Of a DNA stretch of 64,000 nucleotides, positions 5,797 through 31,300 are shown piece by piece. The position numbers and the translations under genes were made by a program. How positions within the stretch are numbered: position 1 is the first letter of the stretch; each line of letters opens with the position of its first letter. Origin of the DNA: a virus (lineage: Duplodnaviria > Caudoviricetes); the IMG/VR virus record IMGVR_UViG_3300029305_003259, positions 32,001-96,000 of that record; one strand, given 5' to 3'. Below the pieces are notes generated by a model, which worked only from the letters and a program-made list of their open reading frames with translations, did not search any database and was not told the DNA's origin.

Positions 5797-5811
5797 TCTC
5801 TACTATTATCT

Positions 5812-5839: not shown

Positions 5840-5858
5840 AAATAATTAGAAAAGGAGG

Positions 5859-6284: not shown

Positions 6285-6318
6285 TAAGGTACTACTTTAT
6301 GTGGTGCCTTATTTTTTT
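6283..6318 (+). terminator. Intrinsic terminator
   Basis: AATAAGGTACTAC...GTGGTGCCTTATT stem (with G-U pairs) plus T-run. Confidence 0.65.
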
Positions 6319-6339
6319 AGGCCAAAAGGAGAAGATACT

Positions 6340-6558: not shown

Positions 6559-6583
6559 AACTCCAACAGAAAGGAGTGAGAAA

Positions 6584-7444: not shown

Positions 7445-7496
7445 TAAGAACATGAAGATCATGTTTTTATAAATATTTTAATGAAAGGAGATAAAA

Positions 7497-9077
7497 ATGG
7501 CTAATCAGAATGTAAGATTTTATTCTGTCGATTTGAAATCCAAATTCGACGCATTACAACCAAAAGACGCATATGCACTGTATTGGATCGAAGAAACTAA
7601 AGAGCTATTTAAAGGAGCAACACTCTTTGGTACTGGTGCAGAAGCAAGCGAAAAGGCCGCAGGTCTATTATCCGCAACTGATTATGCAGAACTTAAAAAG
7701 CTTATTGCCTCTGGCCCTGCTAAAACTCTGACACCTGTTGATGGAACTATTTCTATCGAAAACGATAAGATTGGTGTCAAGGTTTCTAAGACCGAAGGCA
7801 ACCTAATCGCAGTTAATGATGATGGTCTATTCGCAGCCGTCAAATCTGTATCCATAGATCAGGTCACTGGCCTTAAAGATGAACTTGATTCCATCAAGAA
7901 TGCTGCTGTTGGCGGAATTCACTACAAAGGCAATGTTCCAACCGTGGATGATCTACCTGACGATGCCGATCAGGGCGATATGTATGAAGTCGTTGCTGAT
8001 GGCTCCGAGTGGGCCTTCAATGGCGAGAAGTGGTTTGAGTATGGCACCGCACATTTTGTTCCAGTATCTGGCGCTGGAATTGATATTAGTGGCAGCACCA
8101 TTTCTGCAAAAATAAGTGCCGCTGCAGATAACTCTCTTGTTGTTGCGGAAGACGGTGGACTATTTGTACCAGAGTGTGATTTCACAGATAAAGACCGTGT
8201 TACCATTGATACCCTACCAATGCTTTATGTGACTAATGACAAAATGAACAATGCGATTGCCCGTGCTATTGCAGACAATTGTATGGTATGGGAAGAGCTT
8301 GGAGCTACTGTTGGAGTTGCAAAAATCGGAAATACATATTATCCAACAATTAATGCGGCTATTGCTGCAGCAAACGCCGGTGATACAATTAAGGTTGTAG
8401 CTGGTACTTATAGCGGTATTGAGTTTACAGATAGCACAAAAGCTAATATCACTCTGCTTGGCGAAGATGGTGTTTATGTTGGCAAGGTTCGTTTAGTAGA
8501 TACTGCCAACTATGGTGCGCCTGATGGCTTGACATTAAAGAACATCACATTCAATGGTGAGGGCATCACCGCACATGATGATACAATTAACAACATGTCT
8601 ATTGTCGGTTGTGACTTTGTTGACGGCGCAGTTATTCATATTGGAGACTGCGTAACCGATGGCCTTATCATTGAAAATTGCGAATTTGAGGCAACTAATA
8701 GTGCTGTAAATAGTCCTGAGAAGACCGCTATCCTGGTTCAGGGCACTTCTAAGAATGTTATTATTCGTGGAAATAATATCAAGGATTCTGAACACAATGC
8801 AATCCAGGTTGTTGGAGTAAGCGGATCTATGCTCGTTGATAGCAATACTATTTCTAATACTGGTAGCCGCGCAATGCGTATTACTACCAAAGATGGCGCA
8901 GTTCTAGCTATTATGAACAATACTATTACTAACGTTAATATCAATCCTTCCGAAGCAGAAGAAAACGATGGCCAAATCATAAAGATTACAGGTTCTGTTG
9001 TCGATGGCGCTATCGCTAATAACACCTATGATAATAACGAAATCGTCTTTAATGACGGTATTGGAAAAATTATTTAA
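7497..9077 (+). CDS. Tail fibre/spike with C-terminal right-handed parallel beta-helix (pectate-lyase-like; possible depolymerase)
   Basis: YPTINAAIAAANAGDTIKV.AGTY cap motif followed by N/I/V-rich beta-helix rungs. Confidence 0.75.
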   Translation: MANQNVRFYSVDLKSKFDALQPKDAYALYWIEETKELFKGATLFGTGAEASEKAAGLLSATDYAELKKLIASGPAKTLTPVDGTISIENDKIGVKVSKTEGNLIAVNDDGLFAAVKSVSIDQVTGLKDELDSIKNAAVGGIHYKGNVPTVDDLPDDADQGDMYEVVADGSEWAFNGEKWFEYGTAHFVPVSGAGIDISGSTISAKISAAADNSLVVAEDGGLFVPECDFTDKDRVTIDTLPMLYVTNDKMNNAIARAIADNCMVWEELGATVGVAKIGNTYYPTINAAIAAANAGDTIKVVAGTYSGIEFTDSTKANITLLGEDGVYVGKVRLVDTANYGAPDGLTLKNITFNGEGITAHDDTINNMSIVGCDFVDGAVIHIGDCVTDGLIIENCEFEATNSAVNSPEKTAILVQGTSKNVIIRGNNIKDSEHNAIQVVGVSGSMLVDSNTISNTGSRAMRITTKDGAVLAIMNNTITNVNINPSEAEENDGQIIKITGSVVDGAIANNTYDNNEIVFNDGIGKII

Positions 9078-11234: not shown

Positions 11235-11251
11235 TTGATTAACTAAATTAT

Positions 11252-11284
11252 GGGCTAGTGGGGAAACTCACTAGCCCTCTTTTA
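11252..11284 (+). terminator. Intrinsic terminator
   Basis: GGGCTAGTG...CACTAGCCC followed by TCTTTT. Confidence 0.75.
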
Positions 11285-11402
11285 AAATTTGATACCTAGC
11301 ACTTTAACTTCGAAAATAATAGTTGGCTTTGGACGGTAAGATACGCAAAGCTGCTTTAACATAAAGCCAACTAAACATATTCTTTAGAAAGGAAATGATT
11401 TA

Positions 11403-12278
11403 ATGGCACTTTTTAAAGTAAATCGTGGAAATAGCTCAAACCTACCTGCTACTATGACAGACGGCTGGGCATATTTTTGCACTGATACCGCAGAGTTTTT
11501 TATTGACTATGCTGATGAAAATGGCGATTTGCATCGTAAGAAAATTAATGCTAAAGATGCCGAAACCATTGGCGGAGTAAGTCTTGATGAGGCTATGGAG
11601 CCTTTAGATCCATATCTGGAATATTGGTGGATAGTCCCAGAAGGATATCAGGTGTATGCTCAACAAGTAGAAGAGAATTATAGTTACACCTACGGTTCTT
11701 CGTCCGCGTGGTTCTCAGATAGTTTCAATCCATCTACTGGTGATTATAATGTTACCGTTTATTATGGCGATTCGTTCACATTTAATCCGGTGACAGGTAA
11801 GTATACCATTGAAAACCCTGTGGAATATACAGATAAGTATACCACTTTTGTTAGCGAAGCACCATCTTTGATGCTTAACAAATTTGTGGCGGCGAACAGT
11901 CCAGAGGCGAATATTATTATGTACTTCGTTTCTGGTACTACTATCGAGGATTATGTATATCAAAATATGTATAATGATATGAGGGTTCGATTCCAACCAC
12001 AGAATGTTACACGCTATTATCGTACACAAGTTGATACTAATTTCGTATCCGCTGAGACACAAAATGCTTATTCTGAAGATGATGGCTTCATCGCTCTAGG
12101 CACCATTAAGGACAAAGTTCTAGACCTAGCGCTAGAAGCAGAATCAACACCAAAATATGATGTGGTAACAGCCTTAAATAATAGCGAAACTGAAATTCCA
12201 ACTTCAAGCGCTGTATATAAGGCGATAGAAACTCAGACAGGTATGGCAAACGTATTTGCCACAGCGACAATTTTATAA
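11403..12278 (+). CDS. Tail fibre-associated protein
   Basis: N-terminus (RG..SNLPAT..DG.AYFCTD) resembles the N-terminus of ORF 9102; IPTSSAVY.AI motif near the C-terminus. Confidence 0.6.
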   Translation: MALFKVNRGNSSNLPATMTDGWAYFCTDTAEFFIDYADENGDLHRKKINAKDAETIGGVSLDEAMEPLDPYLEYWWIVPEGYQVYAQQVEENYSYTYGSSSAWFSDSFNPSTGDYNVTVYYGDSFTFNPVTGKYTIENPVEYTDKYTTFVSEAPSLMLNKFVAANSPEANIIMYFVSGTTIEDYVYQNMYNDMRVRFQPQNVTRYYRTQVDTNFVSAETQNAYSEDDGFIALGTIKDKVLDLALEAESTPKYDVVTALNNSETEIPTSSAVYKAIETQTGMANVFATATIL

Positions 12279-12290
12279 AGGAGTGATAAT

Positions 12291-13532
12291 ATGGCAATTT
12301 TAAATATAACCTTACCGGAAGGCGCAGTTGTATGTAATGGTAAACAAGTAACATTCCGTGCCCCATGTGATTGCGTCGGAGTAACCGGTATTGCCATTGA
12401 AGGCGTAACATATGCCCTTTTGGATACAACTGATGCACCAGTTAATTCTATTAGTGCATTCGTAACAGGCGCATTGGTTACCGTAGTTTTGGATACTGAA
12501 AACAATAAAGCTTACATTCAGAATGGTAGCGCCGCAGCTGCTGGTGTTCCTAGAAGAGTTGCCGTAAAGCTACTTGCTTCTGGATGGGATTCCGAAAATT
12601 CTCAGATTGTTGATGTTTTAGGTTTGTCCATTGATGAAACCGAGCAACTTGTTCATATATTCCCAGCGAATAATGTTGTATATGCCGAGTCTGGCATTGT
12701 TGCAGAAACTTATGAGGCTGGTAAGCTAAAATTCACAGCGGAAACAATTCCAACAGTCGATCTTGATATCTCCATTATTATTGAAGAATTAGGCACTCAA
12801 AATCCTGATGCTCCTAGTAATGTAGAATTCGTAGCAGTTGATCTGCCCATTTCTTCTACTGTTCCTACTAGCCATGATGTTTGGGTAGATCCAGAAGATG
12901 ATGGAACCGTAGAGGTTGCATCTAATGCTGTAATAAAGTATAAGGATCCTGTTACTGGAGATATTAAAAAAATTGGCGGCGGTGGATCAGGTATTCTTAT
13001 CAGCGAAGAAATCCCTGATAACGTTGAAGTCTGGATCGATCCTGATGAAGAGGATCAGACCGATAATTTCTACACCATGGCACAGAGTGATGCGAGATTT
13101 GCAGGCATTGATTTGTCCAACGTGTCCAATGAAGACATGTTGGCGAAGATGCAGGCATCCGGGTATAGTCTGCCTGGAAACATTGGTGAGTATTACTCCG
13201 CAACTGGAACAGTTGCTTCTGTTTACAAAGAATACACTGAGATTGCTTCTTTGACAGTGCCAGCTGGTACTTATTTGTTTATAGCTTACACAGAAATAAG
13301 CATTGATGCTGCGGATACTGTTATCAATGCGTCATTTAATTTTGGCAACACCTCGCCCAGCGGTTGGACTTGCGGCGCTGTTAGAACCACTGGTGCTGGA
13401 GGTGGCGGTGCTGTTAGTGTGGGTCTTGGAGTGAATGAAATCGACAATATAACCGCCACGCTCACAGGTTATGGAGGCAAAAATGCAACCTATAATTATA
13501 TTGGCAAAATTTTGGCTGTGCGTTTGGCATAA
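12291..13532 (+). CDS. Modular tail fibre/receptor-binding protein
   Basis: Several beta modules, W(V/I)DP linkers, C-terminal 'LTVPAGTYL...AVRLA' fibre-tip-like domain. Confidence 0.6.
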   Translation: MAILNITLPEGAVVCNGKQVTFRAPCDCVGVTGIAIEGVTYALLDTTDAPVNSISAFVTGALVTVVLDTENNKAYIQNGSAAAAGVPRRVAVKLLASGWDSENSQIVDVLGLSIDETEQLVHIFPANNVVYAESGIVAETYEAGKLKFTAETIPTVDLDISIIIEELGTQNPDAPSNVEFVAVDLPISSTVPTSHDVWVDPEDDGTVEVASNAVIKYKDPVTGDIKKIGGGGSGILISEEIPDNVEVWIDPDEEDQTDNFYTMAQSDARFAGIDLSNVSNEDMLAKMQASGYSLPGNIGEYYSATGTVASVYKEYTEIASLTVPAGTYLFIAYTEISIDAADTVINASFNFGNTSPSGWTCGAVRTTGAGGGGAVSVGLGVNEIDNITATLTGYGGKNATYNYIGKILAVRLA

Positions 13533-13538
13533 GAAGGG

Positions 13539-13931
13539 GTGAAAGAATTGTTTATTATTGAGATTACGTCTAATGAAAACGGTTTTCACCGGATGGAAAG
13601 CCAGAGTCATAAAACAGAGAATTGGAAGGACGGTTATGCCGTAGTTCCCGAAGAAATGGTTCCCGCCATTGATGCCACTTTTGGTTTCTGTGATATTGAA
13701 GTGGTGGACGGTGTTGTGGTTTCTTTTACCGCAATGGAACATCCTGCGCCCCCTCTTTCTATTGAAGGCCAGATCGCGGAATTGAAGGCACAGTTGGCGG
13801 CAACAGATTACATGGTTATCAAGTGTTCTGAGGCTCAGCTAGTAGGTGAAGAATTTCCCTACGACGTTGTTGCTTTGCACGCTGAGAGACAAGAAATAAG
13901 AAATAAAATTAATGCATTGGAGGTACAATAA
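13539..13931 (+). CDS. Tail fibre assembly/chaperone-like protein
   Basis: C-terminal ELKAQLAATDY..IK..E...RQ.IR.KIN.LE motif common downstream of fibre genes. Confidence 0.55.
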   Translation: MKELFIIEITSNENGFHRMESQSHKTENWKDGYAVVPEEMVPAIDATFGFCDIEVVDGVVVSFTAMEHPAPPLSIEGQIAELKAQLAATDYMVIKCSEAQLVGEEFPYDVVALHAERQEIRNKINALEVQ

Positions 13932-14248
13932 TGGCTGTATTAAAATATAAAGACCCAACTACTGGCGAAGTTTGCACAGTAGGAGCACCTAAGATAAAAG
14001 CTCCAACTTATGTATCTTCAACTATGTTAGCCACCTCTTGGGTAGACAACACTTATAGCTTCGAAGCTGACTACCCACATGTAGATTTTGATATTTCAAT
14101 TGAGGTAGCTCCTACTGCTACCGTAGAACAATTCGAGGCATTTGGAGAAGCAATGATTTGTGGCTCAGCCGATACTAATATTGCCACTGCGATTAATGGA
14201 GCACCTTCTATTGACATTCCAATTGTCATAAAGGTGGTGGGTAAATGA
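13931..14248 (+). CDS. Small tail-fibre adaptor-like protein
   Basis: LKYKDP.TG motif shared with ORF 12291; W...P.IDI.I beta module. Confidence 0.55.
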   Translation: MAVLKYKDPTTGEVCTVGAPKIKAPTYVSSTMLATSWVDNTYSFEADYPHVDFDISIEVAPTATVEQFEAFGEAMICGSADTNIATAINGAPSIDIPIVIKVVGK

Positions 14249-17200
14249 GCTTACAAGTATTAACTCAAGGTGGTGCTGGCGGAGCTTCTGCTAGTATCCA
14301 AGTTAATGGTCTAAGTGAAACTGATAGTGTTAAAGCTGTTCAGAAGATTAAGAATGTTATTGAGAATCCTGATTATAAGGAATATAGAGTATTAAAAGGT
14401 CAATTGGCTCTTGGAGATGTAGCAGTTGGCGAGACTGTCAGACTGAATGTCAGTGGAGTAGCAACGGAATTCATAGTAGTTAATCAAGGTAAACCTTCTG
14501 ATCTATATGATGATAGTTGTGATGGTACATGGTTGTTGATGAAGGGTATTGAACAAGGTAGTACCTGGAACAACTCTAACTATAGTGGCAATAGCTATGG
14601 TTCATCTGCAGTCCACAGATACCTTAATAGCACCTTTTTAGGTACGTTGGATGCTGGCATACAGTCTGTTGTCATCCAAGCAAAGATTCCATACGTCAAT
14701 GGGACAGGTTCTGGTGGCTCTGTAGCATCTGGTTCTAATGGTTTGTCTGCAAAAGTTTTCTTACTTTCTGGTTACGAGGTGGGTTTCACTACAAGTGATG
14801 ACTCTCGTTTTCCAATTGATGGTTCAAAGTTGAGTTACTTCTTGTCAGGCTCAGGCACTTCCGCTAATAATAAGCGTATAGCTTATCTGAACGGAAATGA
14901 CGATTATAGTTGGTGGTTACGTTCTCCATATACCGCAGGAACAGAAATGGTTTTCTTGGTAAACGATCAAGGTATGAAAGGTCAATCACTACCAAGTCCA
15001 AAAAGAAATCGTCCAGCAATGATTCTCCCGACCAATCTTTCCGTCAAAGACGGATTCATTGACGGTACTGAGGTACAACAAGGAAAATTACTTAGCTCTG
15101 CATCCGTTGGAGACATTGTTAAGATGAATGTTGGCGGTACTCCTACGGAATTTATTGTGGTGCAACAAGGTAACCCTGATTCGTCTTTGTATGATGAAAG
15201 CTGCGATGGAGCTTGGCTGTTGATGAAAGATATTCACAATACTGCTATGTACACCACAATTGGTAACGCATCTTATAATTTTGCAATGATACAAAATTCG
15301 TTGAGTATATTCTTAGGAAAATTAGATGAGAATGTATTGAATGCAGTAAAGACAGTAAAAATACCATATTTAGAGATAGAGGGAGCCAAGAATGATATTA
15401 AGAGAACCCTATTCTCTGGAACGGAAGGTCTATCAACTAAAGCGTTCCTATTATCTGTCTATGAGGTAGATCCTAGTAGGACAGGTTCTCCTAAAGATGG
15501 TACATGCTTAGACTATTTTAAGTCTGCTAGCACGAGTGATCGTATCGCTTCTTTCGAAGGTACAACGACTGCCTGGTGGACTCGTACAGGATGGGGGACT
15601 TACGCTGATACTCAATCATATCTAGTTGGCGATAATGGCAGCACATCGACAACAAGCGTTAAGACATATTGCGGTGTTCGTCCCGCTATAATTCTTCCTG
15701 GTGATACAATAATAACCGACGATTTCATTGGTGGTTCAATATCAGAGCCTAGCAGTGTAGAAACTTATACTCCTCTAGAGTATATCGAGAGTACCGGTAC
15801 ACAGTATATTGATACAGGATATCTCCCTCAGCAGCATGACGAAGTCTCAGCAAAATTCGAAATGACCGAGATATTAGAATATAACAGATTAATTGGAGCT
15901 GCTACTGGTAGTAGCGGTGCAGCCTACTACGGATGCAATCCAATTACTCAATTAAATGGGTACTTCGATATAGGTTATTATAACTGGTATAGACCTAACT
16001 CCATTCCATGTGAAAAAGATACTATTTACGATTATTACGCATCTCTTAGCGATGGAAGTCAGGAATATACTATCAATGATGCAAATATGAGTGGAGACTT
16101 GACTGGGTTCGTAGAGATACCTTGTTCTTACTTTGTGTTCTCGGTGAACCATGATGGTAGTCCTGAATGGGGTAGCTCTGAATCTAGTTGTTGTCCTGCA
16201 AAATTGTATGGTTTGTCAATCAGCAATAATTCGGTATTGATTCGAAACTTTGTCCCAGCTAAGCGTAATTCAGATGGAGTTCTAGGCCTATTTGATACTG
16301 TAAATTCTGTCTTTTATACCAACGCAGGTACTGGTGACTTTGTTGCTGGCCCCGAGGTTTCTCAGTATATTGAGGCGGTTGTCGATGGTAGAACTGTGAA
16401 TGGTAGATGGGTCGATATGATTAATCCTGAGTATGTTGAGCTACCTGTTACTGAGAATGAGGCAATTGATGGATATACCAGACTTGAGTACATCGAAAGC
16501 AGTGGCACGCAGTACATTGATACCGGGTTCACCCCTTCCAGCGCAAGAAGTTTTAAGTTCTCTTTTGATGCGGCGTTCTTGAGTGAGACTAATGCTATTT
16601 ACGGAACGGGTCGCTCTTATGCGGGATTCTATAGTAGCCCCTCAATAGCACAATTTGCTCTATATCAGACTATAGTACAAATATCATCCGTATCATATGA
16701 TACTAATAAACATCACTTTGTTCTCGATGGTGTAAATTTAACTGCTACAATTGATGATAATTCTGCGTCTATACCTTATTCGTCTGGTTCACCTTCAGAT
16801 TATACATGGGTACTTTTTGGATACTCTCACGCAAGTTTTAATGCAAGTAGGCTGTGGGGCGCACAGATTGAAGAAAACGGAGTGCTGGTACGCAACTTTA
16901 TCCCCGCAAGGCGGGATTCCGATTCCGTGGTTGGCCTGTATGACCTTGTGAACGGCGTGTTCTACACCAATGCCGGAAGCGGCGAATTTGTAGCAGGAGA
17001 AGAATTGTCTCAATTTACTAAGGAATATATTCAGTTAGAGTACATTGAGAGTACTGGCACACAGTATATTGATACTGGTTATAAGCCCAACACAAATACA
17101 AAGCTTGAAATTGGAGCATCTACTACCGATACTACAAACGATAAGCCTCTATTTGGTGTACGTAAATCAAATGGCGTAGATGGATTCTTGTGTTGGTTTA

Positions 17201-18357
17201 ACCCACAGGTTGCAGAACAACCCGGTTTTGCAGTAGGTTCTATGTCTAATACTTATACTAGTTATGGTATAGCTACTGGAGTTCGTTATGATGTAACGCT
17301 ATCCAATTCATTATTTACAATGAATGAATTGTCTTATCCTTTTGATGCACAGACTTTCACTTCTAGTTATAATCTTTATCTACTTGCACTTAATAAAGCA
17401 GATGTTCTAGATAATAGATTGTTCTATGGTAGATTGTATTATACTCGTATTTATGAATCTGATGTTTTAGTTCGTGATTATGTTCCAGTTAAGAGGGTAT
17501 CTGATGGCGCAATTGGTCTATACGATAAAGTCAATCAAACATTCTACTCTAACGCAGGCACCGGGAACTTCACAGCTGGTGCAGAGGTTCCTGAATCATT
17601 TAGTTATTTCTTGATTTCCCCAATTAAAGCTTATGGTACTTGGGAAGTAGGGACTACCAGCAGTGTAAGTATTAACAATCAGAATGTTGATATCGATGAG
17701 GCTACCATCTTTAATCTAGACTTTGTAAAACTAGTTAGATTCACTACTGACTTTACAGCAAAAGGTGATGATTGGATTGAGGAGGGTGGCACATTCACTT
17801 TCAATCCGGCAACCGCAGCCTATCCCGGATTGTATCAAGCGGAAGGCAGTACACAATTCGGCACACTTACAACCTATGATAGTACGGAATGGAAAGCAAA
17901 ACGGTTAATAATTCCGTTAGGCGGTTCTCTTGAAACTTTCCACGCAGAAACGGAATGTTTCTGGGTATCATCCGATGCAAACAGAATGGGTCGCTTGATG
18001 CTATGTTTCCAAGACGAGGATGGAAACTTTTTGTTCCACATCATTATTAATGATGGTTGGGGTCGTTCCAATAGCATAAGCATCGCCTATTTCAACGCAT
18101 TGAACTCTAATCTGTTGAAATTCGTAGATGCCGTATCTGTCAGCCCGTATAACAATGTTCCGTTGCGCTTTACGCTGGATTATGACGGCAACAAGATGAA
18201 CATTGGATTTTCTTATAACGGCGGGGGATTTTCCTATAAATCGGAAACCTATGCTTTCCCTGCGATTGCAAATGCGGTGGTATATTTCGCCTACTATCCG
18301 ACATCTAACCCGACCCCGCTGATGAATATTCGTTCACTAACAGTAGAACAAGCATAA
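14245..18357 (+). CDS. Large multidomain receptor-binding/adhesin protein (two DUF6273-like domains, three LEYIESTGTQYIDTG lectin-like repeats, C-terminal beta-sandwich)
   Basis: Two VG..V..NV.G..TEFIVV.QG.P...YD.SCDG.WLLMK...FLLS..E...WW.R...RPA.IL units; three LEYIES.GTQYIDTG...LVR.(F/Y).P..R.SD...GL.D.VN..FY.NAG.G.F units. Confidence 0.75.
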   Translation: MSLQVLTQGGAGGASASIQVNGLSETDSVKAVQKIKNVIENPDYKEYRVLKGQLALGDVAVGETVRLNVSGVATEFIVVNQGKPSDLYDDSCDGTWLLMKGIEQGSTWNNSNYSGNSYGSSAVHRYLNSTFLGTLDAGIQSVVIQAKIPYVNGTGSGGSVASGSNGLSAKVFLLSGYEVGFTTSDDSRFPIDGSKLSYFLSGSGTSANNKRIAYLNGNDDYSWWLRSPYTAGTEMVFLVNDQGMKGQSLPSPKRNRPAMILPTNLSVKDGFIDGTEVQQGKLLSSASVGDIVKMNVGGTPTEFIVVQQGNPDSSLYDESCDGAWLLMKDIHNTAMYTTIGNASYNFAMIQNSLSIFLGKLDENVLNAVKTVKIPYLEIEGAKNDIKRTLFSGTEGLSTKAFLLSVYEVDPSRTGSPKDGTCLDYFKSASTSDRIASFEGTTTAWWTRTGWGTYADTQSYLVGDNGSTSTTSVKTYCGVRPAIILPGDTIITDDFIGGSISEPSSVETYTPLEYIESTGTQYIDTGYLPQQHDEVSAKFEMTEILEYNRLIGAATGSSGAAYYGCNPITQLNGYFDIGYYNWYRPNSIPCEKDTIYDYYASLSDGSQEYTINDANMSGDLTGFVEIPCSYFVFSVNHDGSPEWGSSESSCCPAKLYGLSISNNSVLIRNFVPAKRNSDGVLGLFDTVNSVFYTNAGTGDFVAGPEVSQYIEAVVDGRTVNGRWVDMINPEYVELPVTENEAIDGYTRLEYIESSGTQYIDTGFTPSSARSFKFSFDAAFLSETNAIYGTGRSYAGFYSSPSIAQFALYQTIVQISSVSYDTNKHHFVLDGVNLTATIDDNSASIPYSSGSPSDYTWVLFGYSHASFNASRLWGAQIEENGVLVRNFIPARRDSDSVVGLYDLVNGVFYTNAGSGEFVAGEELSQFTKEYIQLEYIESTGTQYIDTGYKPNTNTKLEIGASTTDTTNDKPLFGVRKSNGVDGFLCWFNPQVAEQPGFAVGSMSNTYTSYGIATGVRYDVTLSNSLFTMNELSYPFDAQTFTSSYNLYLLALNKADVLDNRLFYGRLYYTRIYESDVLVRDYVPVKRVSDGAIGLYDKVNQTFYSNAGTGNFTAGAEVPESFSYFLISPIKAYGTWEVGTTSSVSINNQNVDIDEATIFNLDFVKLVRFTTDFTAKGDDWIEEGGTFTFNPATAAYPGLYQAEGSTQFGTLTTYDSTEWKAKRLIIPLGGSLETFHAETECFWVSSDANRMGRLMLCFQDEDGNFLFHIIINDGWGRSNSISIAYFNALNSNLLKFVDAVSVSPYNNVPLRFTLDYDGNKMNIGFSYNGGGFSYKSETYAFPAIANAVVYFAYYPTSNPTPLMNIRSLTVEQA

Positions 18358-18370
18358 AGGAGGTCATCAA

Positions 18371-19354
18371 ATGTCTATTTCAATTTTAAACAGAGGCGCA
18401 TCTGGTGGCCTTAAACCAGAATTAATTATTACCGCTCCTGCAGGAAGCACTATTGACCTCCTGCAGGGTGGCATTATTATTGACACTTATACGTTAGGAT
18501 TAAGCGAGACTACTCATGTGTTTGTGGTAAAAATGGGTAGTTATACAGTAACTGGTACCCTTGGTGCGAATGTAGTAGATTATGATATTATTGTCGATTC
18601 TGTAAAACAGTATGAAATGGAAGTAGTGCCTTCTGCAAATTATATCATGCTCTATGACCATGGAGATGAATGTACTGATGTAACAGGTGGTTGGGTTGCA
18701 GAGGGTAAAACTTCCGCAGATAACTATAATCAGCAAGCAGGATTCTTAACAGCAAACAGTTTTAATATGGGAGAGTATAGTAGAGTTGGACTATTAGGGC
18801 TATTAAGCGCCTCGAATACTTCATATACAGGATATTTTGGGTTAGCCGAAAGCCAAACTCTTAAGACAGGTGTAACTTCTTTTAGACTTAAATTTGGGAG
18901 TTCTAAGACATTTTGTTCTGCAGCATTAGCTGTCGATGGAGATAAATATGCAACAGTTCATATTGCGTGGTCAAGCGATTCTTCCTTTACTTTCGTTAAT
19001 ACAAAAAATAGTGATCATCTGTATGTAAACAGTTATCGTAGCACGAGCCGTTATAGTCGCGCTTCTTACTATGCCGTTGCGCTTTTTAAGCCAGATGACT
19101 GGCAGACGCTTTGTGCAAAAGCAGGTGTTTCTGCACCGTCTACCTTGGATGAATTGACGGCTGATACAACTGCACTGACAACTATTCTGTCCAATAAATC
19201 TGCGGTTGATTTCATGGCGAAACGATGCACTGGTGACTTCATGTGTGCGGCAGTCAGTACAGAAGCATTTTTGACAGCTCTTGAGGCATCAGTATATAAA
19301 GAATTTGTTTATGCTAATGAACATTGGGCAAAATTCTTGGCTATGGTGGGATAA
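18371..19354 (+). CDS. Tail fibre/receptor-binding-like protein
   Basis: N-terminus similar to that of ORF 14245; LYD.GDECTDVTGGW motif; helical C-terminus. Confidence 0.6.
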   Translation: MSISILNRGASGGLKPELIITAPAGSTIDLLQGGIIIDTYTLGLSETTHVFVVKMGSYTVTGTLGANVVDYDIIVDSVKQYEMEVVPSANYIMLYDHGDECTDVTGGWVAEGKTSADNYNQQAGFLTANSFNMGEYSRVGLLGLLSASNTSYTGYFGLAESQTLKTGVTSFRLKFGSSKTFCSAALAVDGDKYATVHIAWSSDSSFTFVNTKNSDHLYVNSYRSTSRYSRASYYAVALFKPDDWQTLCAKAGVSAPSTLDELTADTTALTTILSNKSAVDFMAKRCTGDFMCAAVSTEAFLTALEASVYKEFVYANEHWAKFLAMVG

Positions 19355-19484: not shown

Positions 19485-19511
19485 AGGAGCGGCTTAGTCC
19501 GCTCCTATTTT
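19485..19511 (+). terminator. Probable intrinsic terminator ahead of the radical-SAM cassette
   Basis: AGGAGCGG-CTTAGT-CCGCTCCT followed by ATTTT. Confidence 0.6.
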
Positions 19512-19537
19512 AAAATTTTAATAAGGAGGTAAGTAAC

Positions 19538-19822
19538 ATGATTATAAATCCTTCCTATGGCAATGGCAACGGAGACTCTTATGAAAAAGAAGAAGTTTTA
19601 TCAAATGATACAAAGGCACTGTTTGGACTAAGCGAAGAAGCTACGCCAGACGATGTTTTTAAAGCGATAGCCTCTGAAGAAAATTTTTCATGTGGATTTA
19701 TTGCTCAGGAAAGTGAACCGAGTAATACCAACTTGTTATGGATCGATACTACTGCCGAAACAGGTGGCTTAAAATATTACAATGGAAGTGCCTGGGTTCA
19801 TGTCCCTGTTGCTTATACTTAA
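19538..19822 (+). CDS. Small tail-fibre-like protein
   Basis: SD AAGGAGGT; P...LLWIDT....LKYYNGSAW motif typical of fibre linker modules. Confidence 0.6.
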   Translation: MIINPSYGNGNGDSYEKEEVLSNDTKALFGLSEEATPDDVFKAIASEENFSCGFIAQESEPSNTNLLWIDTTAETGGLKYYNGSAWVHVPVAYT

Positions 19823-19847
19823 TTTTTTGGGAAAAAGGTGAAAATAA

Positions 19848-21482
19848 ATGGATAAAAGGATTAAAATAACCGAAGGATTACGAGATTATGTTGAAAGACT
19901 AAATTTCGAGGCAATCAGATATAGAGATTTACTTCACTCTGTTAGAAGAGATTCTTCTCCTATGACAGATGATGAATGGCAAAGTTCGCTCGATTATTAT
20001 AGGGAACTGAATGCTGAGGCGCAGTATTGCCTTAAAGTTGCCATGGATGAAATTTATGATATGTATAAAGATGAAATAAAAGATTCCCCTTGGCATATTA
20101 ATTTCTCTGATTGTGATCTCGTAATTGGGAGCACCTCGAGTGAGCCAATAATGATTAAAGAAGAAACTTATAACGACAAATTAAGAAGACTTTATCCGCC
20201 TGAAAAAAATGTGCCGCTTGCTATTAATGGTACATATACCAAGGACATCACATTGCAGGTTACAGACGCATGTAATATGGCTTGTACATACTGCTACCAA
20301 CATAATAAGGGAACGCACTCTATGACTTTTGATGTTGCAAAGAAGTTTATCGATATGATTTTGGATGCCGATGAACGAACAAACACATATATCACTTCTA
20401 CGAAGTGCGATGGTGCAATTATTAATTTCATAGGCGGTGAACCTTGGCTGGAAATTGATTTAATCTCCAAGGTCAGTGATTATTTTATTGGCGAAGTATT
20501 TAGACGCAAGCATCCTTGGGCTATAAAGTTTGTATTTAGTGTATGCTCAAATGGCCTCCTACATTTTGATTCAAAAGTTCAAGAGTATATGAAAAAGCAT
20601 ATTGATCATTTTGGATATAACATTTCTATCGATGGCAACAAGGCTTTACATGATTCGTGCAGAATTGATTTGACTGGCAATGGCACATATGATAGAGCCA
20701 TTGCTGGTGTTAAGGACTTTAAAGAAAATTTTGGCGGAAATATGGGCAGCAAAATGACCATTGCACCTGGTAATATTGATAAAGTATTTGATGCGGTATC
20801 TTTTATGATAGGAGATAGCGGATATAGAAATATTAATCTAAACTGTGTTTATGAGGAAGGTTGGACACTAGAGCATGCCAATACTCTTTATTGGCAATTG
20901 CATAAATTGACTGACTGGTTATATGATAATAATCTTTTACATACGACCAGATTATCCATGTTCACAGAAATGTGTGGCAAGCCTATTCCAGAAGACAATG
21001 ACAGTAATTGGTGTGGAGGAGTAGGCCTCATGTTAGCTGTTGATTATAAGGGAGATATTTTCCCATGTCTTCGTTATATGGAATCTTCTGTTGATAATAA
21101 AGTTCCTGCTTATGTTATAGGGAATATTCATTCAGGTATTAATATTGAGAAAGAACATTGTGATCGTGTAAATTGCCTCGGATGTATCACAAGAAAGTCT
21201 CAGTCAACAGATGAATGTATTAATTGTCCGATTGCAATGGGTTGTGGTTGGTGTAGTGCATATAATTACGAAGTATTTGGCACGCCAAATAAAAGAGCGA
21301 CCTATATTTGTTGCATGCATAAAGCAAGAGTTCTTGCGAATGTTTATTATTGGAGACTTAGAGGCATAGATTATCCTATGAATTGCCCAAAAGAATGGGC
21401 AATTGAAATAATAGGAGAAGAAGAATATGAAAAATTGAATTCTATGAAAGTGGGTGAAAGAAATGGGGTTAGTATCTGCTGA
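19848..21482 (+). CDS. Radical SAM/SPASM peptide maturase (CXXX-repeat target family, TIGR04115-like) with fused N-terminal accessory domain
   Basis: CNMACTYC (CxxxCxxC), FIGGEP, SNG, ISIDG, NWCG...G.IFPC, CINC.IA.GC.WC...C.MHKARV.AN.YYW. Confidence 0.9.
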
Positions 21483-22062
21483 TAGATTTAATGAACTTAA
21501 AGCTAGAGTTAAGGCTGAATGTGCTAGAAGAGCTTATGCAGATAGCGTTGCTTCTTATGGTGGCACAGATTATGACTATACTACTACACCTGCGTCTGGC
21601 ACATTAATTAAGCAAGAACATAGAGACAAAATAGCTATTCCCCTTAATGCCATAAGTGAGGATATGATTCCAATTGCTTCAGGACTTCCTGTTGTATTAG
21701 ATGAGGATTTATTATCAATGGAAGCCTTTATTACGGTGTTAGAACAAAGAAGTCCAACAGATAGCGAAGGAACAGACTGTTCAGGCGGATGTGCAGGAAT
21801 GTGTTATGGATGCCAGGGGACTTGTTATAATAATTGTTCTGGTTGTGGTAATAGTTGTAGTAATAATTGCTCTGGTGGTTGTAAAGGCGGCTGCACTAGT
21901 GATTGCGGTGGTTGCGGAGGAAGTTGCGATGCCTCTTGTGAAGGAGGATGTTTATATAGTTGTTATGACATTTGTTCCGGTTGTGGAGGCGCTTGCTCCA
22001 ACGATTGTAAGGGAAGCTGCGCTGGATGCGGCGCTACGTGTGCCTCTAGCTCAACACAATAA
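21463..22062 (+). CDS. Cys-rich CXXX-repeat protein, putative radical-SAM substrate
   Basis: Overlaps the rSAM stop codon; ATG 21463 after GGGTG SD (ORF track 21454); C-terminal ~90 aa hold 24 Cys spaced CxxxC (18 times) or CxxC (5 times). Confidence 0.85.
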
Positions 22063-22084
22063 TATGTAGATATTGGAGGCATAT

Positions 22085-22636
22085 ATGAACGAGTTATATC
22101 ATGCAAAATATTTTTTATGTTTAGCAGATGCAAAGGTAAATGAATCCGTAAGGCTTAACTTTTCTTCATGTATTGATTATTCGAATTTGGTTGCATGTAA
22201 TAATATTTTTTCATTAATAATATCGACTGTTGTTGATGGTATTAAAATCGGTATTTACACTGAAAATTCAGCCAAACTAGCCATAGAGGAAGAATTTTCA
22301 AAATTAGGTTTAGAAATAATATGCGGCAATTATTCGCAATTTAAACATTTTATTAATTTAGTCGTAAATTCGTGTGCTATATCTAATTTTAATGTTCAAG
22401 ATTTTATCGGAATGTATAAATCATTTATTGAAATTGCTGACAATATGGACATGTGTTATAAGATTGACATTTATTATGCAATTTTAAATTCTATTGTTAA
22501 TTTTTCTCATATACTTGTTGATATTGAATTAACTGAAAAACTAGTAAATTATATTGAATCATTGGATGATGTTAAAATTGGCTCTTTTTCAAAAATAGTA
22601 TTATCATCATTAGATTATATAAGAAAAAATAGTTAA
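22085..22636 (+). CDS. AT-rich hypothetical protein, possibly part of the rSAM cassette
   Basis: ATG 22085 after GGAGG; 22 nt after the Cys-rich gene; no recognised motif. Confidence 0.65.
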   Translation: MNELYHAKYFLCLADAKVNESVRLNFSSCIDYSNLVACNNIFSLIISTVVDGIKIGIYTENSAKLAIEEEFSKLGLEIICGNYSQFKHFINLVVNSCAISNFNVQDFIGMYKSFIEIADNMDMCYKIDIYYAILNSIVNFSHILVDIELTEKLVNYIESLDDVKIGSFSKIVLSSLDYIRKNS

Positions 22637-22683: not shown

Positions 22684-23010
22684 GTGATAAAAATGAAAAA
22701 GAAGAAAATTAATAAAAAAAATGTAAATCCTTTTAATTTTATAAAAACTTTTTCAAAAGTCATAACTGCTGTATGGGTTGTAATATGGGTTGAAGTGATT
22801 ATCTTCTCACAGATTGCCACAATTTTTTCTCTAGGAGATGCTACTTCAATTCAGGTCATTAATGATAATGCCAAGGAAATTGGTCTAGTTATAACTGGCG
22901 CATATTTCGGTACTAAATGTTTTGAAAATTTGGCCAAAGGCTATGAAGAGCATCAATTGCGCATCCTTGGTATTGATAGAGCAGATTATGAGGAAATGGA
23001 AGAAGAATAA
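22684..23010 (+). CDS. Putative holin (two TM segments)
   Basis: Basic N-terminus, two hydrophobic stretches, YF.TK..EN motif; directly upstream of an endolysin. Confidence 0.6.
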   Translation: MIKMKKKKINKKNVNPFNFIKTFSKVITAVWVVIWVEVIIFSQIATIFSLGDATSIQVINDNAKEIGLVITGAYFGTKCFENLAKGYEEHQLRILGIDRADYEEMEEE

Positions 23011-23021
23011 GGAGGTTCAAT

Positions 23022-23771
23022 ATGAATGAGAAGCAATTAAGAGACAAGCTGGTAAAGAAGGCGGTTTCTTACTTGGGCACTAAGGCAGGCAGTGCTAGAC
23101 ATAAGAATATTGTTGATACTTATAATAAAATTGTCCCACTGCCAGCTGGCTATAAGGTAAAATATACAGATCCTTGGTGCGCCACATTCGTATCATTTTG
23201 TGCTTCTGTTTGTGATATGTTAGATATCATTCCAGCAGAATGTGGATGCTCCAGACAAATTGAGCTATGGCAAAAATTGGGCAGATGGCAAGAAAGGGAT
23301 TCCTATGTGCCTCAAACTGGCGACATTATATATTTCGACTGGGACGATTCTGGTAAGGGCGACAACACTGGTTGGTCTGACCATGTAGGAATTGTTGTAT
23401 CTGTATCTGGTGGAAAAATTAAGACTATTGAGGGAAACAAAAGTAATGCAGTAGGATATAGAACTATTGCGGTTGATGGCAAATATATTCGAGGATATGG
23501 TTTGCCAGACTTTGCCTCAAAGTCAACAGAAGACACTAAGATGGACACATGCAATGTTGAATTAAATGTTCTCGCAAAAGGATGTAAGGGCGACAGCGTA
23601 AAGGCCTTGCAGATTTTGCTCAAAGGCTATGGATATTCTATTGGTAGTAGCGGCGTAGATGGAAGTTTTGGGCCTTCTACTTTGTCTGCTGTAAAGAAAT
23701 ATCAAAAAGATAAGGGATTATCTGTTGATGGGTCTGTTGGCCCAGCCACATGGAAATCATTACTTGGATAA
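23022..23771 (+). CDS. Endolysin: CHAP domain + peptidoglycan-binding domain
   Basis: WCATFVS (catalytic Cys), DHVGIV (His), IEGN; C-terminal G.SVK.LQ.LL...VDG.FG..T..AV..YQ...GL.VDG.VG..TW. Confidence 0.9.
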   Translation: MNEKQLRDKLVKKAVSYLGTKAGSARHKNIVDTYNKIVPLPAGYKVKYTDPWCATFVSFCASVCDMLDIIPAECGCSRQIELWQKLGRWQERDSYVPQTGDIIYFDWDDSGKGDNTGWSDHVGIVVSVSGGKIKTIEGNKSNAVGYRTIAVDGKYIRGYGLPDFASKSTEDTKMDTCNVELNVLAKGCKGDSVKALQILLKGYGYSIGSSGVDGSFGPSTLSAVKKYQKDKGLSVDGSVGPATWKSLLG

Positions 23772-25606: not shown

Positions 25607-25999
25607 ATGAATGAATTGCTGAATGTTGTTTTGACTAATTTAACCGATGTTGGTATTGGAGTATTGTTATTTGTAATGGCTTATGTGTCCAATATGGCTC
25701 TTAGCTTGTATTACAACATTAAGATTTTAAAGCAGCCTTTTGACAAGAATAAATTGATTGATTCTGGATTGAAGGTTGTGGCATTTGGCGTTGGCACGGC
25801 GCTGTTGTGTGTGTGTATTACTACTATTCCCGCTTTTGCGAATCATGTTGGATTTGTAATTCCAGAGGAATATAGCACCGTGTTTCAGGATCTTGCCATT
25901 CTGTCTGTATTCATTATCAGCAGCTGCAAATATTTATTGGAAGCGTACACGAAGTTTTCTGCAATTCTAAAAACTTCCTCTACGGACAAAGTAGTTTAA
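25607..25999 (+). CDS. Putative holin (three TM segments)
   Basis: Three hydrophobic stretches; upstream of an amidase. Confidence 0.65.
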   Translation: MNELLNVVLTNLTDVGIGVLLFVMAYVSNMALSLYYNIKILKQPFDKNKLIDSGLKVVAFGVGTALLCVCITTIPAFANHVGFVIPEEYSTVFQDLAILSVFIISSCKYLLEAYTKFSAILKTSSTDKVV

Positions 26000-26000
26000 T

Positions 26001-26031
26001 AGGAGGAGGGGTTTACCCTCCTCCTTTTTTT
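26001..26031 (+). terminator. Intrinsic terminator between holin and amidase
   Basis: AGGAGGAGGG-GTTTA-CCCTCCTCCT plus T-run. Confidence 0.75.
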
Positions 26032-26044
26032 ATAAAGGAGATGA

Positions 26045-26701
26045 TTGATTATGACAAAAATTTATCTTTCACCAAGTTCACAGCCTGAGAATAAATATGC
26101 TTATGGGAACACAGATGAACAAACGCAATGCAGAAAAATTGCAAATGCATGTGAAAAGGCGTTGAAAAGATGTGGATTTGAAGTTAGGAACGGGCAAACT
26201 GGTGATCATATAAGTAGAACTAAGGAATCTAATGCTTGGAAGGCTGATTTACATGTTGCAATTCATACGAATGCTTTTAATGGTTTGGTTAGAGGAACAA
26301 GGATGTTCTATTTTAATGAAACCGGAAATAGCTATAAAGCGTGTAAAGCAATTTATGATATTTTATCTAAAAATAGTCCAGGAACAAGTGATAATATGAC
26401 AAGGAATCAGAATTTGTACGAGGTTTATTATACTAATTGTTCTCCAGTTTATATAGAGGTAGCGTTCCATGATAATGAATATGATGCTAAATGGATTGTA
26501 CAAAATACAGTTCAAATCGGAGAGTGGATTGCTCATGGAATTTGTAATTACTATGGAGTTAAATATATTACATCTGGTACAAATTCTGTTTCTAAAACAT
26601 ATCAAGTTGTTTGTGGTTCATTTGGAGTAAAAACGAATGCGGAAAAGAGAAAACAAGATCTTGCTAAAGCAGGTTTTGATTCATTTATACAAGTTAAATA
26701 G
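26045..26701 (+). CDS. Endolysin: N-acetylmuramoyl-L-alanine amidase (Amidase_3) + SPOR-like domain
   Basis: E...L...GF.V, R...SN...ADL..AIHTNA, YIEVAFHDN; C-terminal YQV.CGSF..K.NAE....L...GFDSFI. Confidence 0.85.
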   Translation: MIMTKIYLSPSSQPENKYAYGNTDEQTQCRKIANACEKALKRCGFEVRNGQTGDHISRTKESNAWKADLHVAIHTNAFNGLVRGTRMFYFNETGNSYKACKAIYDILSKNSPGTSDNMTRNQNLYEVYYTNCSPVYIEVAFHDNEYDAKWIVQNTVQIGEWIAHGICNYYGVKYITSGTNSVSKTYQVVCGSFGVKTNAEKRKQDLAKAGFDSFIQVK

Positions 26702-28386: not shown

Positions 28387-31300
28387 TTGAGAGAGTTTAA
28401 ATTTAGAATAACCACAGATATATCCGACCTTGAAGCACAATTTAAGGGCGGTGCAGATGCTCTGGCTAAAATGGCCAAAGCAGCTGGTCAGGCGGAAAAT
28501 AAATTAGATTTTTTAAAAGAAACAGGAACATATTTAGATCAAATTGATGCCGCACTTAGCGAATTAAAGACAAAATACCCAGATTTGTTTAATAAAATAT
28601 TTAATAATGTTGATAAACAGATAAAAGATGCTATCGCTCCAATTAAACAAATGACAAAAGAAATGGACACATTGTTTGCGCATGTTGGTGCGCAGCTACA
28701 AGGAATGTCAAGTGGTAAATTAGATGGTAGTAGAAAAGAAATTAATCAAATAATTGTTGGCATGAAGGCTCTTGCCAATGCATTAAATGTAAAGATTGAT
28801 TTTAAAGTTTTTGAAGATATGGTTAACAACGGAGATGAAGCAAAGGTCATAGCAAATTCTATGATTGGCAGCCTTGAAAAGATTGCTAGTGCATATACTG
28901 ACATTGGCAAAACATCTTTAGAAGCTTCAAAATCTATAGATAGTATTGGTAAAAATAAAACTATAAAGGACGCTGCCGAAGATGCCAAAACTCTTAATGC
29001 GGAGTTAAAAAATACCAAAAAGGCTGCTAAAGAAGCAAAAAAAGAAGTAGAGACTCCTGTAAAGCAAAAAGATAGTGGTTCTAAGCCACAGAACGCAATG
29101 AGTTATGACGATTTGCTGAAAGCTGTAAATAAAGCCAAAGATTTATCAAAAAAAATAGATGATGGCGATGATAGTGCGTTTGATAAAATGGACTCGCTTT
29201 TAGGCTCTTTGCAGAAAAAATTCAAGCTTAATGAAGATGGCGTTGCTAGATTTGAAGAGGCAATGCAAGATTTAGATATAACCACAGAAGAAACAATGCG
29301 AAAATTGCAGACTATACTTGGTGATAAATTTCCATCTGCAATCCAAGAAAGCAAAGAGGAAGTCAAAGAATTAACCAACGCTATAAATTCTGCGGATAAA
29401 GATTTAAACAATGTAAGCGTTGCTGAGGCTAATGCAAAAGCAACAGAAGAAGCGGCGGACGCTGCGCGAAGAATTGCCGATGAAACAGAAAGGGCTAAAA
29501 ATGCTGCCTTAAAATTAGACGAAGCATTAAAAGGAGCTGGAAAAAGAACAGAGGGCGCAATTCTTTACGATTCACAGACAGGAGCATATGGTGATGCTAT
29601 AAAAGGTGAAGACCATCAGGTAAAAATACCAACTTCTGATGGTAAAAAATATGATACAGAAATGCATACTCACCCTTGGGATTTTGCCGCTCCATCTGTC
29701 GAAGATTTTGATGTATGGATTAACAATTTCGATGAATTTAAAAAGTTTGCAATTCGTGCAAATAAAGAAATATTATCTATTGATTTTTCATCCATTGATG
29801 CTGATGGTTTAAAAAACATTAGAGACCAATATGCTGTAGCAGTTCAAAAGATAGAAGAAGAATTTGGTCAATATGCAACGGATATTAACGCGATGAATGG
29901 AAAATTTGGATCATATGATGGATGGCAAAATGCAGCACAACAAGCTATGCAAAATGCTCTGAAGAATATGCTTGATCCAAAAATGTTTTCAACTATCGAT
30001 TTCCAAAAAGTTGTCGAACAATCAGGGTCTACAAAGGCAACAGTGCCTCTATCTGAACAATATGCTGGAGCAAGTGAAGAGGTTAAAAGATTAGTTAATG
30101 AACTTGCAAAGCTTGACGATCTTGATGAAACAGACGAGATTGCTGCAAAGTGGAACCATTTAGCAGAAATTGCCCCAAATATTTATAAATCAATGCGCGG
30201 AGATGCATGGGAGAATTTAAAACAAGACATTCTTTCTAATACTTCTGCTGTTGAAAATTTAGGAGAAGAAATAGATGAGGCATTAACGCTAGAAACTGGT
30301 AATCTTGAGTCAAAATTGGAGAGACTAAAGGATCTTGCCGATGAATATGGCATGCAGATTACTCAGCGAGATCGTAATACTTTAGAATTTTTAATCGACC
30401 AGGATAATGAGAAAGAATTGACTGGCGCAAAAGCAGACAGACTTTCTGAATTGCAAGACAAAATTGATGCGGCAGATGATGCGTTAATTGCATTTGAAGA
30501 ACAATACGATAAAATAATTCTAAAACTTGAAAATGGCAAAAAGGTAGAAATTCTACCTAATGATAAAGGCCTTCGTGATTTATATAAATTCATGGATGAA
30601 GGCGACGGAAGAACTTTTAATGGTATTGATGTTGCCGATGTTGAATACGTCCGAGCAGAACAGTTTGTAAGAACACAAATTGAGTCATATGAAGAATTAT
30701 GTAAAGTTGTCGAAAGATATAATGAATTGCGTCATAAAAAGGACAGAACTTCAAAAGAAAACATTGAATTTCAATCACTTCTTGACCGTATTAGAGCAAC
30801 TGAGCCAGAAAACGGCATAACAAGTCCAGATTACGATAAACGATTAATAGAATTTACTAGAATATTTAAAGAGTGGCTTTTAAATACGGATTCTCTTGCA
30901 AAATATCTTGGCATTGAAATTCCGCAAGCAGCAGTGATTGCTGAATCTGCGGTTGAAAATCTTGGACAAGAAATTAAGGAATCTTTATCTCCAGAAGCCG
31001 TAGACTCTAAGTCTGTTATGAAACAATTCCAAGATATTTGGAAACTGAAAAACGACTTAAAATATGACCTTAATTATAATGCAAAATATATTGGCGATGA
31101 TGCTGCAGTAAGCGAAGCAAAACAACAAGTTGCCGAATATGATGAAAGACTAAAACAACTTGCCGTATCTTATGTTAGCCTTGGTGGCGCAGTTGATGAT
31201 TTTAAATCTAAGGAAAAACGTGAGTTTGCAGCGGATGTTGTTAACAATTTAAACGAGCAAAATCAGCAGGCAGAAAGTCAACTCGAAGAAACAAATCAAA

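Follow-up and report, generated by a model that had tools for sequence, protein, structure and literature searches.

A stretch of 64,000 nucleotides of DNA from a large gut phage (the window; bases 32001-96000 of the 128,431-bp IMG/VR phage record IMGVR_UViG_3300029305_003259, whose completeness is estimated at 78%) carries, at positions 19538-22636 of its plus strand, four tightly packed and co-oriented genes that encode a 94-residue protein, a 544-residue radical S-adenosylmethionine (SAM)/SPASM enzyme, a protein ending in a ladder of regularly spaced cysteines (the Cys-ladder protein) and a 187-residue protein. This cassette is real and is met again in dozens of phages that belong to gut Clostridia; its phage form displays new traits, namely an accessory protein that is either fused to the enzyme or separate, a two-domain protein as target, a conserved helical partner and a linkage with a tail-fibre motif. 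With regard to function, what the sequences suggest, and what we find plausible, is a late-gene module making an enzymatically cross-linked Cys-ladder protein that would be attached to the tail fibre; we consider the chances that this reading is right to be even. It is tempting to go one step further and to hypothesize that many phages of gut Clostridia carry, as the tip of a virion fibre, a thioether-ringed Cys ladder, which would make theirs the first virus particles with a modification introduced by a radical-SAM enzyme, although we are somewhat more doubtful about this wider statement. The four-gene layout between fibre-type genes and lysis genes had been described in a first-pass annotation made from the letters alone, and checking the open reading frames (ORFs) of the window bears out both the genes and their coordinates:

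19538-19822, plus strand: gene of the 94-residue protein.
19848-21482, plus strand: gene of the 544-residue enzyme.
19848-20132, plus strand: accessory-like domain, about the first 95 residues of the enzyme, delimited by homology to separate accessory ORFs.
20238-21350, plus strand: radical-SAM/SPASM catalytic core, enzyme residues 131-501, delimited with the hidden Markov model (HMM) TIGR04115.
21463-22062, plus strand: gene of the Cys-ladder protein, 199 residues from the ATG at 21463 or 202 residues from a GTG at 21454.
21463-21777, plus strand: conserved N-terminal domain (N-domain) of the Cys-ladder protein, about 105 residues, predicted helical, from an A3 profile search and a structure model.
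21778-22062, plus strand: Cys ladder, 24 cysteines in CxxxC/CxxC register, from a spacing analysis.
22073-22636, plus strand: gene of the 187-residue protein.

The 544-residue protein, judged by its motifs, is an intact radical-SAM/SPASM enzyme of the TIGR04115 family, as the first-pass annotation had suggested. It scores 399.7 bits against a curated cut-off of 350, over positions 1-359 of the 359 of the model (401 bits in a genome search), and the ligands of its clusters are intact: a CX3CX2C motif lies at residues 142-149 (Cys 142, 146 and 149), seven SPASM cysteines are found at 389, 407, 457, 460, 466, 469 and 488, and all ten of these iron-sulfur cysteines are invariant in the 14 homologues that were aligned. 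Enzymes of TIGR04115 are defined by their adjacency to CXXX-repeat targets, and here the gene of such a target overlaps that of the enzyme by 20 nucleotides, its start (the ATG at 21463, which is also the start used by public gene calls) lying ahead of the enzyme's stop codon. The family is catalogued but uncharacterised; we found in the literature no biochemical study of TIGR04115 or of the bacterial CXXX-repeat system, nor any phage example of a Cys-repeat protein modified by a radical-SAM enzyme. Among characterised relatives, the enzyme scores 172.7 bits with the PapB-family model NF047865 (cut-off 340), 110 bits with the QhpD-type model TIGR03906 (far under its cut-off of 453), 103 bits and 89.9 bits with the models of CcpM and of the SCIFF maturase, both under their own cut-offs, and 72.4 bits with TIGR04463, the family of CrpC (cut-off 525), while the nearest solved structure is that of CteB (5WGG, E 1e-15).

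Since PapB, QhpD, CcpM and the SCIFF maturase, the best-scoring of these relatives, all form thioethers between cysteine and carbon, we infer the same kind of chemistry for the phage enzyme, and its seven-Cys SPASM domain is typical of thioether formers. Both points argue against another modification of the cysteines, be it conversion to formylglycine as by the sulfatase maturase anSME, carbon-carbon or other cross-links, or inter-chain links that would polymerise the protein. Such an outcome could nevertheless draw on a weak match to the anaerobic sulfatase maturase model (57.7 bits), on the rarity in the ladder of the acidic acceptors typical of ranthipeptides, and on the fact that no characterised member of TIGR04115 was found in the literature; of the explanations considered here we regard it as the least probable.

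The bacterial CXXX-repeat system, defined by HMMs only, comprises the TIGR04115 maturase, TIGR04114/04117 targets, a TIGR04116 accessory protein and a second maturase, TIGR04119. The absence of this second, degenerate radical-SAM partner, already remarked on for the window, extends to the whole 128-kb record, 78% complete, in which an HMM search returned no TIGR04119 at E<=1; as a positive control, the related locus L002 scores 235 bits (L numbers designate related loci). The accessory protein, in turn, does not seem to be absent: it is probably fused to the N-terminus of the enzyme. The TIGR04115 match begins only at residue 131, so that about 130 residues precede the catalytic core, and the first 95 or so are collinear, end to end, with separate ORFs of 91-98 residues that adjoin the enzymes of relatives (BLASTP against the separate 94-residue ORF of L001, E 4e-6). 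Neither this N-extension nor the rest of the 128-kb record has a TIGR04116 HMM match; the enzyme of L009, which is 63% identical, gives a weak, full-length match to TIGR04116 (E 0.036). By hhalign, the profile of the phage accessory aligns over 80 columns (probability 63%, E 7e-5) with a bona fide TIGR04116 protein, one that scores 104.6 bits against the model. By tblastn, accessory and enzyme share a single reading frame in the window, in L009-L011 and in L006, and are separate elsewhere; in most relatives it is a separate gene of about 95 codons. Because ORF alignments, the match of L009, the hhalign result and the tblastn frames agree, we read the N-terminus of the enzyme as a divergent and fused homologue of TIGR04116.

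The putative target is as regular as the name of the system implies. A single cysteine occurs in the first 105 residues of the Cys-ladder protein, and 24 cysteines follow between residues 106 and 193, separated by gaps of three residues (19 gaps) or two (four gaps), with fillers rich in G, S, T and N. A word-indexed search with the N-domain retrieved 43 clusters, whereas an exhaustive A3 profile search of 1.84 billion representatives retrieved 487 (clusters at 50% identity) with a limit of E<=1e-3, or 277 when the limit is E<=1e-10; a tblastn search of the phage collection with the Cys-ladder protein gave no match, probably owing to the low-complexity filter. Nearly all proteins with the N-domain are 160-260 residues long and have it at the N-terminus, where invariant positions include K, E, RR, K and P. 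In 153 family members the ladder has a median of 22 cysteines (range 6-36), the gaps are CxxxC in 80% and CxxC in 17%, the fillers are mainly S, T and G, and Asp and Glu together reach at most 8% at any position. Many homologues carry the Pfam label PF27846 (tSAM_targ_Cxxx_rpt) among precomputed annotations, and the homologue in L001 scores 21.3 bits with TIGR04114. AlphaFold2 predicts three helices in the N-domain (residues 6-22, 51-64 and 80-95) with a pLDDT (the model's confidence per residue) of 60-79, and predicts the unmodified ladder to be disordered. We propose the N-domain as a recognition and/or docking domain and the ladder as the substrate of the maturase. With a two-domain Cys-repeat protein whose gene overlaps that of the enzyme, the pairing of enzyme and target made in the first-pass annotation is as well supported as sequence data allow.

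Several family members depart from this plan by whole domains. Among variants such as P0124, P0135, P0151 and P0059, some have an extra domain of 100-200 residues inside or just after the N-domain, one carries at its N-terminus a further domain of about 175 residues, and a Pfam scan of the extra-domain members P0059, P0063, P0124, P0135 and P0151 gave no match. By eye, the extra domain of P0059 might resemble a carbohydrate-binding module. One further protein, P0163, joins the Cys-ladder protein to the accessory protein; it may be the read-through of a recoded stop codon, and we have for this reason kept it out of the evidence.

The cassette is recurrent. A search with the target alignment yielded 53 IMG/VR loci, whose contigs measure some 4 to 170 kb, together with eight loci in genome contigs, seven of which are metagenome-assembled genomes (MAGs) of Ruminococcus, Oscillospiraceae, Blautia and other Clostridia, the last being a bacterial system of Bacteroidota. 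The fibre motif described below, the enzyme and the N-domain protein are found together in 56 of the 61 loci, which places the cassette far beyond chance; of the remaining five, two are truncated at the end of their contig or close to it, two have diverged and the fifth is the bacterial system. Two gene orders coexist, enzyme-first (32 loci) and target-first (24 loci), and in 47 of 57 measurable loci the motif ends 16-52 nucleotides before the first gene of the cassette. When 92 flanking ORFs from ten lineages were compared with PHROGs, every annotated family among the top 25 was related to tail, baseplate, structural or lysis functions (tail fibre, tail, baseplate hub or wedge, tape measure, virion structural, endolysin, amidase, peptidase), so that the position within a tail-fibre and lysis region, first noticed in the window, turns out to be conserved across many phage lineages. 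The contrary pattern, in which homologous cassettes would sit mainly in bacterial chromosomes with random placement in phages, is not what this survey shows: the two-domain form of the target turned up in contigs of phages and, within Clostridia MAGs, in regions that look like phage. The MAG matches suggest Oscillospiraceae, Ruminococcus and Blautia as hosts, and one prophage lies in Evtepia.

The partner most tightly linked with the enzyme and its target is the 94-residue protein, given that its C-terminal motif is also that of true tail fibres. Over its last 40 residues or so, it has an identity of 56-78% with the very end of the proteins encoded just before the cassette in other phages (78% over 41 residues with the ends of proteins of 228 and 344 residues in L009 and L010), and the matching genes are tail fibres according to PHROGs, for example:

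L032: 783 residues, collagen-like fibre (PHROGs E 4.6e-72).
L016: 443 residues, tail fibre (PHROGs E 4.7e-22).
L018: 349 residues, virion structural protein or tail fibre (PHROGs E 1e-50).

The small ORF had been called fibre-like on first inspection; the C-terminal motif in common with true tail fibres is in keeping with this label, whereas a family match of its own does not come with it, the protein having none in NCBIfam, Pfam or PHROGs. The motif is present once in the window. Used alone as a query, its 45 residues retrieve 100 clusters of 166-1612 residues, a few of them with PF03406 (Phage_fiber_2). In the reverse direction, four of four fibre proteins of differing length that were chosen by the motif are followed, within one to four genes, by the cassette (accessory, N-domain protein and a radical-SAM gene), as seen by tblastn for the three with available DNA and from Pfam labels for the fourth; the enzyme itself was found by tblastn only in L073 and L074, the stretch of L072 ending at a second accessory gene. 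We propose that the 94-residue protein is an adaptor by which the Cys-ladder protein would dock on the fibre.

Taken as a whole, the coupling with the fibre motif in two gene orders, the tail and lysis neighbourhood and the family members with extra domains are our reasons for placing the Cys-ladder protein in the virion, and one may sketch how the module would operate. In the anaerobic cytoplasm of the host, the accessory domain would hold the N-domain of the target, as happens with the leader of a ribosomally synthesised and post-translationally modified peptide (RiPP) or with the N-domain of CrpA, while the enzyme would join the sulfur of each cysteine to a carbon in some residue close by, through a thioether of the ranthionine or sactionine type. 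A floppy tail of about 90 residues would thereby turn into a chain of small rings, with no need for an oxidising environment, that would resist reduction and gut proteases. The N-domain would dock on the C-terminal motif of the fibre or of the adaptor protein, the stapled ladder becoming a distal appendage of the tail that may serve in adhesion or provide mechanical and chemical stability, and the 187-residue helical protein might help assembly.

A number of observations weigh against this proposal. The S/T/G-rich fillers do not follow the pattern of PapA (Cys-x3-Asp) or CrpA (C-x-x-Q/D), and because the ladder is without the acidic acceptors of these two substrates, both the acceptor residue and the type of bond are uncertain. 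The ladder protein of the window remains below the cut-off of TIGR04114 (8.1 vs 20 bits, E 3.9). The model of the N-domain is only moderately confident and resembles no known fold: a Foldseek search of BFVD yielded nothing but family members that are themselves uncharacterised, and the best VIA match (Z 6.3, root-mean-square deviation 3.7, 90 aligned) does not exceed the noise level quoted for helical models. In two jumbo-type loci we recognised no tail gene next to the cassette within the part examined: L004, where the cassette adjoins an array of tRNA genes, and L006, which has a protein with the motif of the 94-residue protein about 3 kb upstream. Finally, a conserved N-terminal part followed by a C-terminal part that is hypervariable in sequence and variable in length is the classic pattern of leader and core in RiPPs.

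This last pattern leads to the main rival of a virion location, namely a RiPP-like product freed at lysis, in which the N-domain would be a long leader of the Nif11/NHLP type and the ladder the core, acting outside the cell, for instance by harming competing bacteria, binding metal or serving as a signal, with no more than a shared late timing behind the linkage to the fibre. The proximity of a candidate holin and an endolysin gene, the descent of both the enzyme family and the accessory from bacterial peptide systems such as that of L002, and the cassette of L004 with its lack of a recognised adjoining tail gene are all compatible with this view. It is harder to reconcile with the motif that ends 16-52 nucleotides before the cassette in two gene orders, with the four of four motif-chosen fibres that have the cassette, and with the nature of the ladder, an S/T/G-rich low-complexity sequence that is neither amphipathic nor cationic. 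Likewise, in none of the loci examined did we see a leader peptidase, an exporter or an immunity gene, which points in the same direction as a virion location, and the whole domains that are inserted into the N-domain or fused before it in some members fit a folded and displayed protein better than a leader peptide. The release of a product at lysis is therefore weakened by these data, and we deem it rather unlikely.

Alternatively, the Cys-ladder protein might never leave the infected cell. The enzyme would then modify the ladder for binding metal or iron-sulfur clusters (a metallothionein-like store, a redox buffer or a donor to the radical-SAM enzymes of the phage) or for the purposes of anti-defence or host takeover, or else it would act on another substrate altogether. 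The very high cysteine content and the predicted disorder of the unmodified ladder are in keeping with such a role, as are the two more radical-SAM genes and the SAM synthetase gene near the cassette of L006 and the case of CrpA, whose operon is induced on pyrite and for which a metal role has been proposed (PMC13692751). It accounts poorly, however, for the coupling to the tail-fibre motif and for the tail and lysis neighbourhood, and a different substrate agrees badly with a family that is defined by adjacency to CXXX targets and, here, with overlapping genes for enzyme and target. We regard an intracellular, non-structural function as improbable, a little less so than a different chemistry at the cysteines.

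The experimental precedent that seems nearest to a stapled ladder displayed on the fibre is found in an archaeon and also concerns a protein-sized substrate with an N-terminal engagement domain. In Methanococcus voltae, the SPASM enzyme CrpC (TIGR04463) introduces ranthionine links into CrpA, a Cys-rich protein of 28.8 kDa (Dieter et al. 2026, PMC13692751). The repeats of CrpA are 17-residue units with C-x-x-Q/D, its N-terminal domain aids engagement, a companion, CrpB, improves processing, and CrpC has an in-built RRE (RiPP recognition element) domain (PMC13692751). Like the phage cassette, this system combines a SPASM enzyme, a Cys-rich substrate of protein size and a small companion; unlike it, CrpC/CrpA is archaeal and chromosomal, with a proposed role in metal handling and no link to viruses, and the paper is silent on phages and on TIGR04115 (PMC13692751). 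The nearest characterised relatives in sequence, PapB (which makes freyrasin) and CteB, process repeated Cys motifs one by one, and the phage ladder too is made of repeated Cys motifs; their substrates, however, are short, possess leader peptides and have Cys-x3-Asp or six-Cys cores, whereas acidic residues are few in the phage ladder. A further parallel is QhpD, a radical-SAM/SPASM enzyme that forms thioethers from Cys to Asp or Glu in a structural protein subunit instead of a secreted peptide. In contrast with the 24-Cys ladder, QhpD/QhpC involves three cross-links, located in a subunit of an enzyme, and lacks any phage setting.

With the bacterial CXXX-repeat system, the cassette shares a TIGR04115 enzyme, a target with a cysteine at every fourth residue and a probable homologue of the accessory, of about 90 residues. 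It differs in being encoded by a phage directly behind a tail-fibre gene, in the lack of TIGR04119 and, in the window, in the apparent fusion of the accessory to the enzyme. A bacterial counterpart was encountered in L002 (MT837480.1, 2222-6270), a sequence deposited as 'Bacteriophage sp.' that looks like a Bacteroidota-like CXXX-repeat locus and in which we saw no phage gene. It holds a Cys-repeat precursor with a twin-arginine translocation (TAT) signal, a TIGR04115-like enzyme, TIGR04119 (235 bits) and TIGR04116 (104.6 bits), followed by genes that resemble those of TatA and TatC by eye. Unlike the TAT-signal peptide of L002, the phage target is a two-domain protein of about 200 residues with no signal peptide.

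If true, a fibre tip built in this way would mean that viruses use RiPP-type radical chemistry for parts of their particles, beyond the small peptides that cells make with it, and it would bring to phage structural biology a new class of post-translational modification and to the uncharacterised family TIGR04115 a function. It would likewise show by what means the phages of strict anaerobes keep their exposed appendages stable in the absence of disulfides, the chemistry of peptide antibiotics being used in an appendage because disulfides cannot form in an anaerobe, and it would represent a new kind of host-binding or gut-resistant appendage. The family is large, as the 487 N-domain clusters indicate, the enzyme and its substrate form a pair of modest size, and a thioether-stapled ladder might be of interest to protein engineers.

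The last gene of the cassette had been labelled an AT-rich orphan, a description that does not survive comparison among loci: a chain of BLASTP matches leads from the 187-residue protein to L011 (1e-16), from there to proteins of 182 residues in L012, L016, L018 and L030 (1e-4 to 1e-7) and on to L006 (7e-8), and every enzyme-first locus that was examined encodes such a relative just downstream of its Cys-ladder gene. A search for homologous proteins retrieved only the protein itself, the family being shown by BLAST among the loci. Its model consists of ten helices (pLDDT 89.9), and by these alignments and this model it belongs to a conserved all-helical family of about 180 residues. The best Foldseek match in the PDB is at E 0.1 (a 14-3-3 protein, TM-score 0.3), and the best VIA match (Z 7.3, root-mean-square deviation 3.5, 82 aligned) lies inside the noise quoted for helical models. 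Our guess is an assembly factor or a chaperone.

Around the cassette, the following features were recorded in the window:

14245-19354, plus strand: upstream genes of the fibre or receptor-binding type, encoding 1370 and 327 residues.
19485-19520, plus strand: GC-rich hairpin with an 8-bp stem, then a T/A-rich run, read directly in the sequence.
22684-23771, plus strand: small membrane-like ORF (candidate holin), then an endolysin with CHAP and PG_binding_1, from PHROGs and Pfam.

The 1370-residue protein matches DUF6273 (3.5e-52), the Hoc-like phrog_10993 (4e-73) and the Dit-like phrog_202, while scans of the family libraries gave no match for the 327-residue protein. From its sequence the hairpin may terminate transcription of the fibre-like gene ahead of it, in which case a separate transcription unit for the cassette might begin at 19538. 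Between this hairpin and the gene of the 94-residue protein lies a strong AAGGAGG ribosome-binding site. The terminator scan lists the hairpin on the minus strand only, and it places the next strong plus-strand terminator after the cassette only at 26001. Downstream, the PHROGs matches of the endolysin are at 1e-30, and further on come a fibre-like protein of 233 residues and an amidase with Amidase_3 and SPOR domains. The window thus holds two sets of lysis genes 2 kb apart (22684-23771 and 25607-26701), the second consisting of a membrane-like ORF of 130 residues and the Amidase_3/SPOR amidase, with strong terminators behind each, at 26001 and 26703. The lysis region is followed by a single ORF of 4211 residues at 28387-41022.

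Several relatives of the cassette read TAG as Gln (L004 at 5194-7338, L006 at 6358-8699 and L073 at 5001-8615). In L004, in-frame TAG codons number eight in the enzyme gene, five in the Cys-protein gene and none in the small accessory gene, and TAG stands, at conserved positions, opposite Gln in the enzyme of the window. In recoded phages, in-frame recoded stop codons reportedly mark late genes, which is in line with a late-gene module. The TAG-recoded contig of L006 (145 kb) further encodes, at 11078-15426 and a few genes downstream of the cassette, two more radical-SAM proteins (438 and 423 residues) and a full SAM synthetase with MetK domains; the SAM for its radical reactions may thus come from the phage itself. 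Upstream of the cassette of L004, at 2242-4437, lies the gene of a 731-residue protein whose N-terminal half resembles, by eye, a formylglycine-generating-enzyme (sulfatase-modifying) domain, which would be a further activity that modifies cysteine. In L072 (8451-9791) and L073 (9681-11024), an unannotated gene of about 446 codons sits between two Cys-ladder genes; it has no TIGR04115-like tblastn match and could be a further partner. Finally, in L055 (7007-10570) and L057 (3013-7297), two Cys-ladder genes with the N-domain flank one enzyme gene, and two copies of the fibre motif are found upstream.

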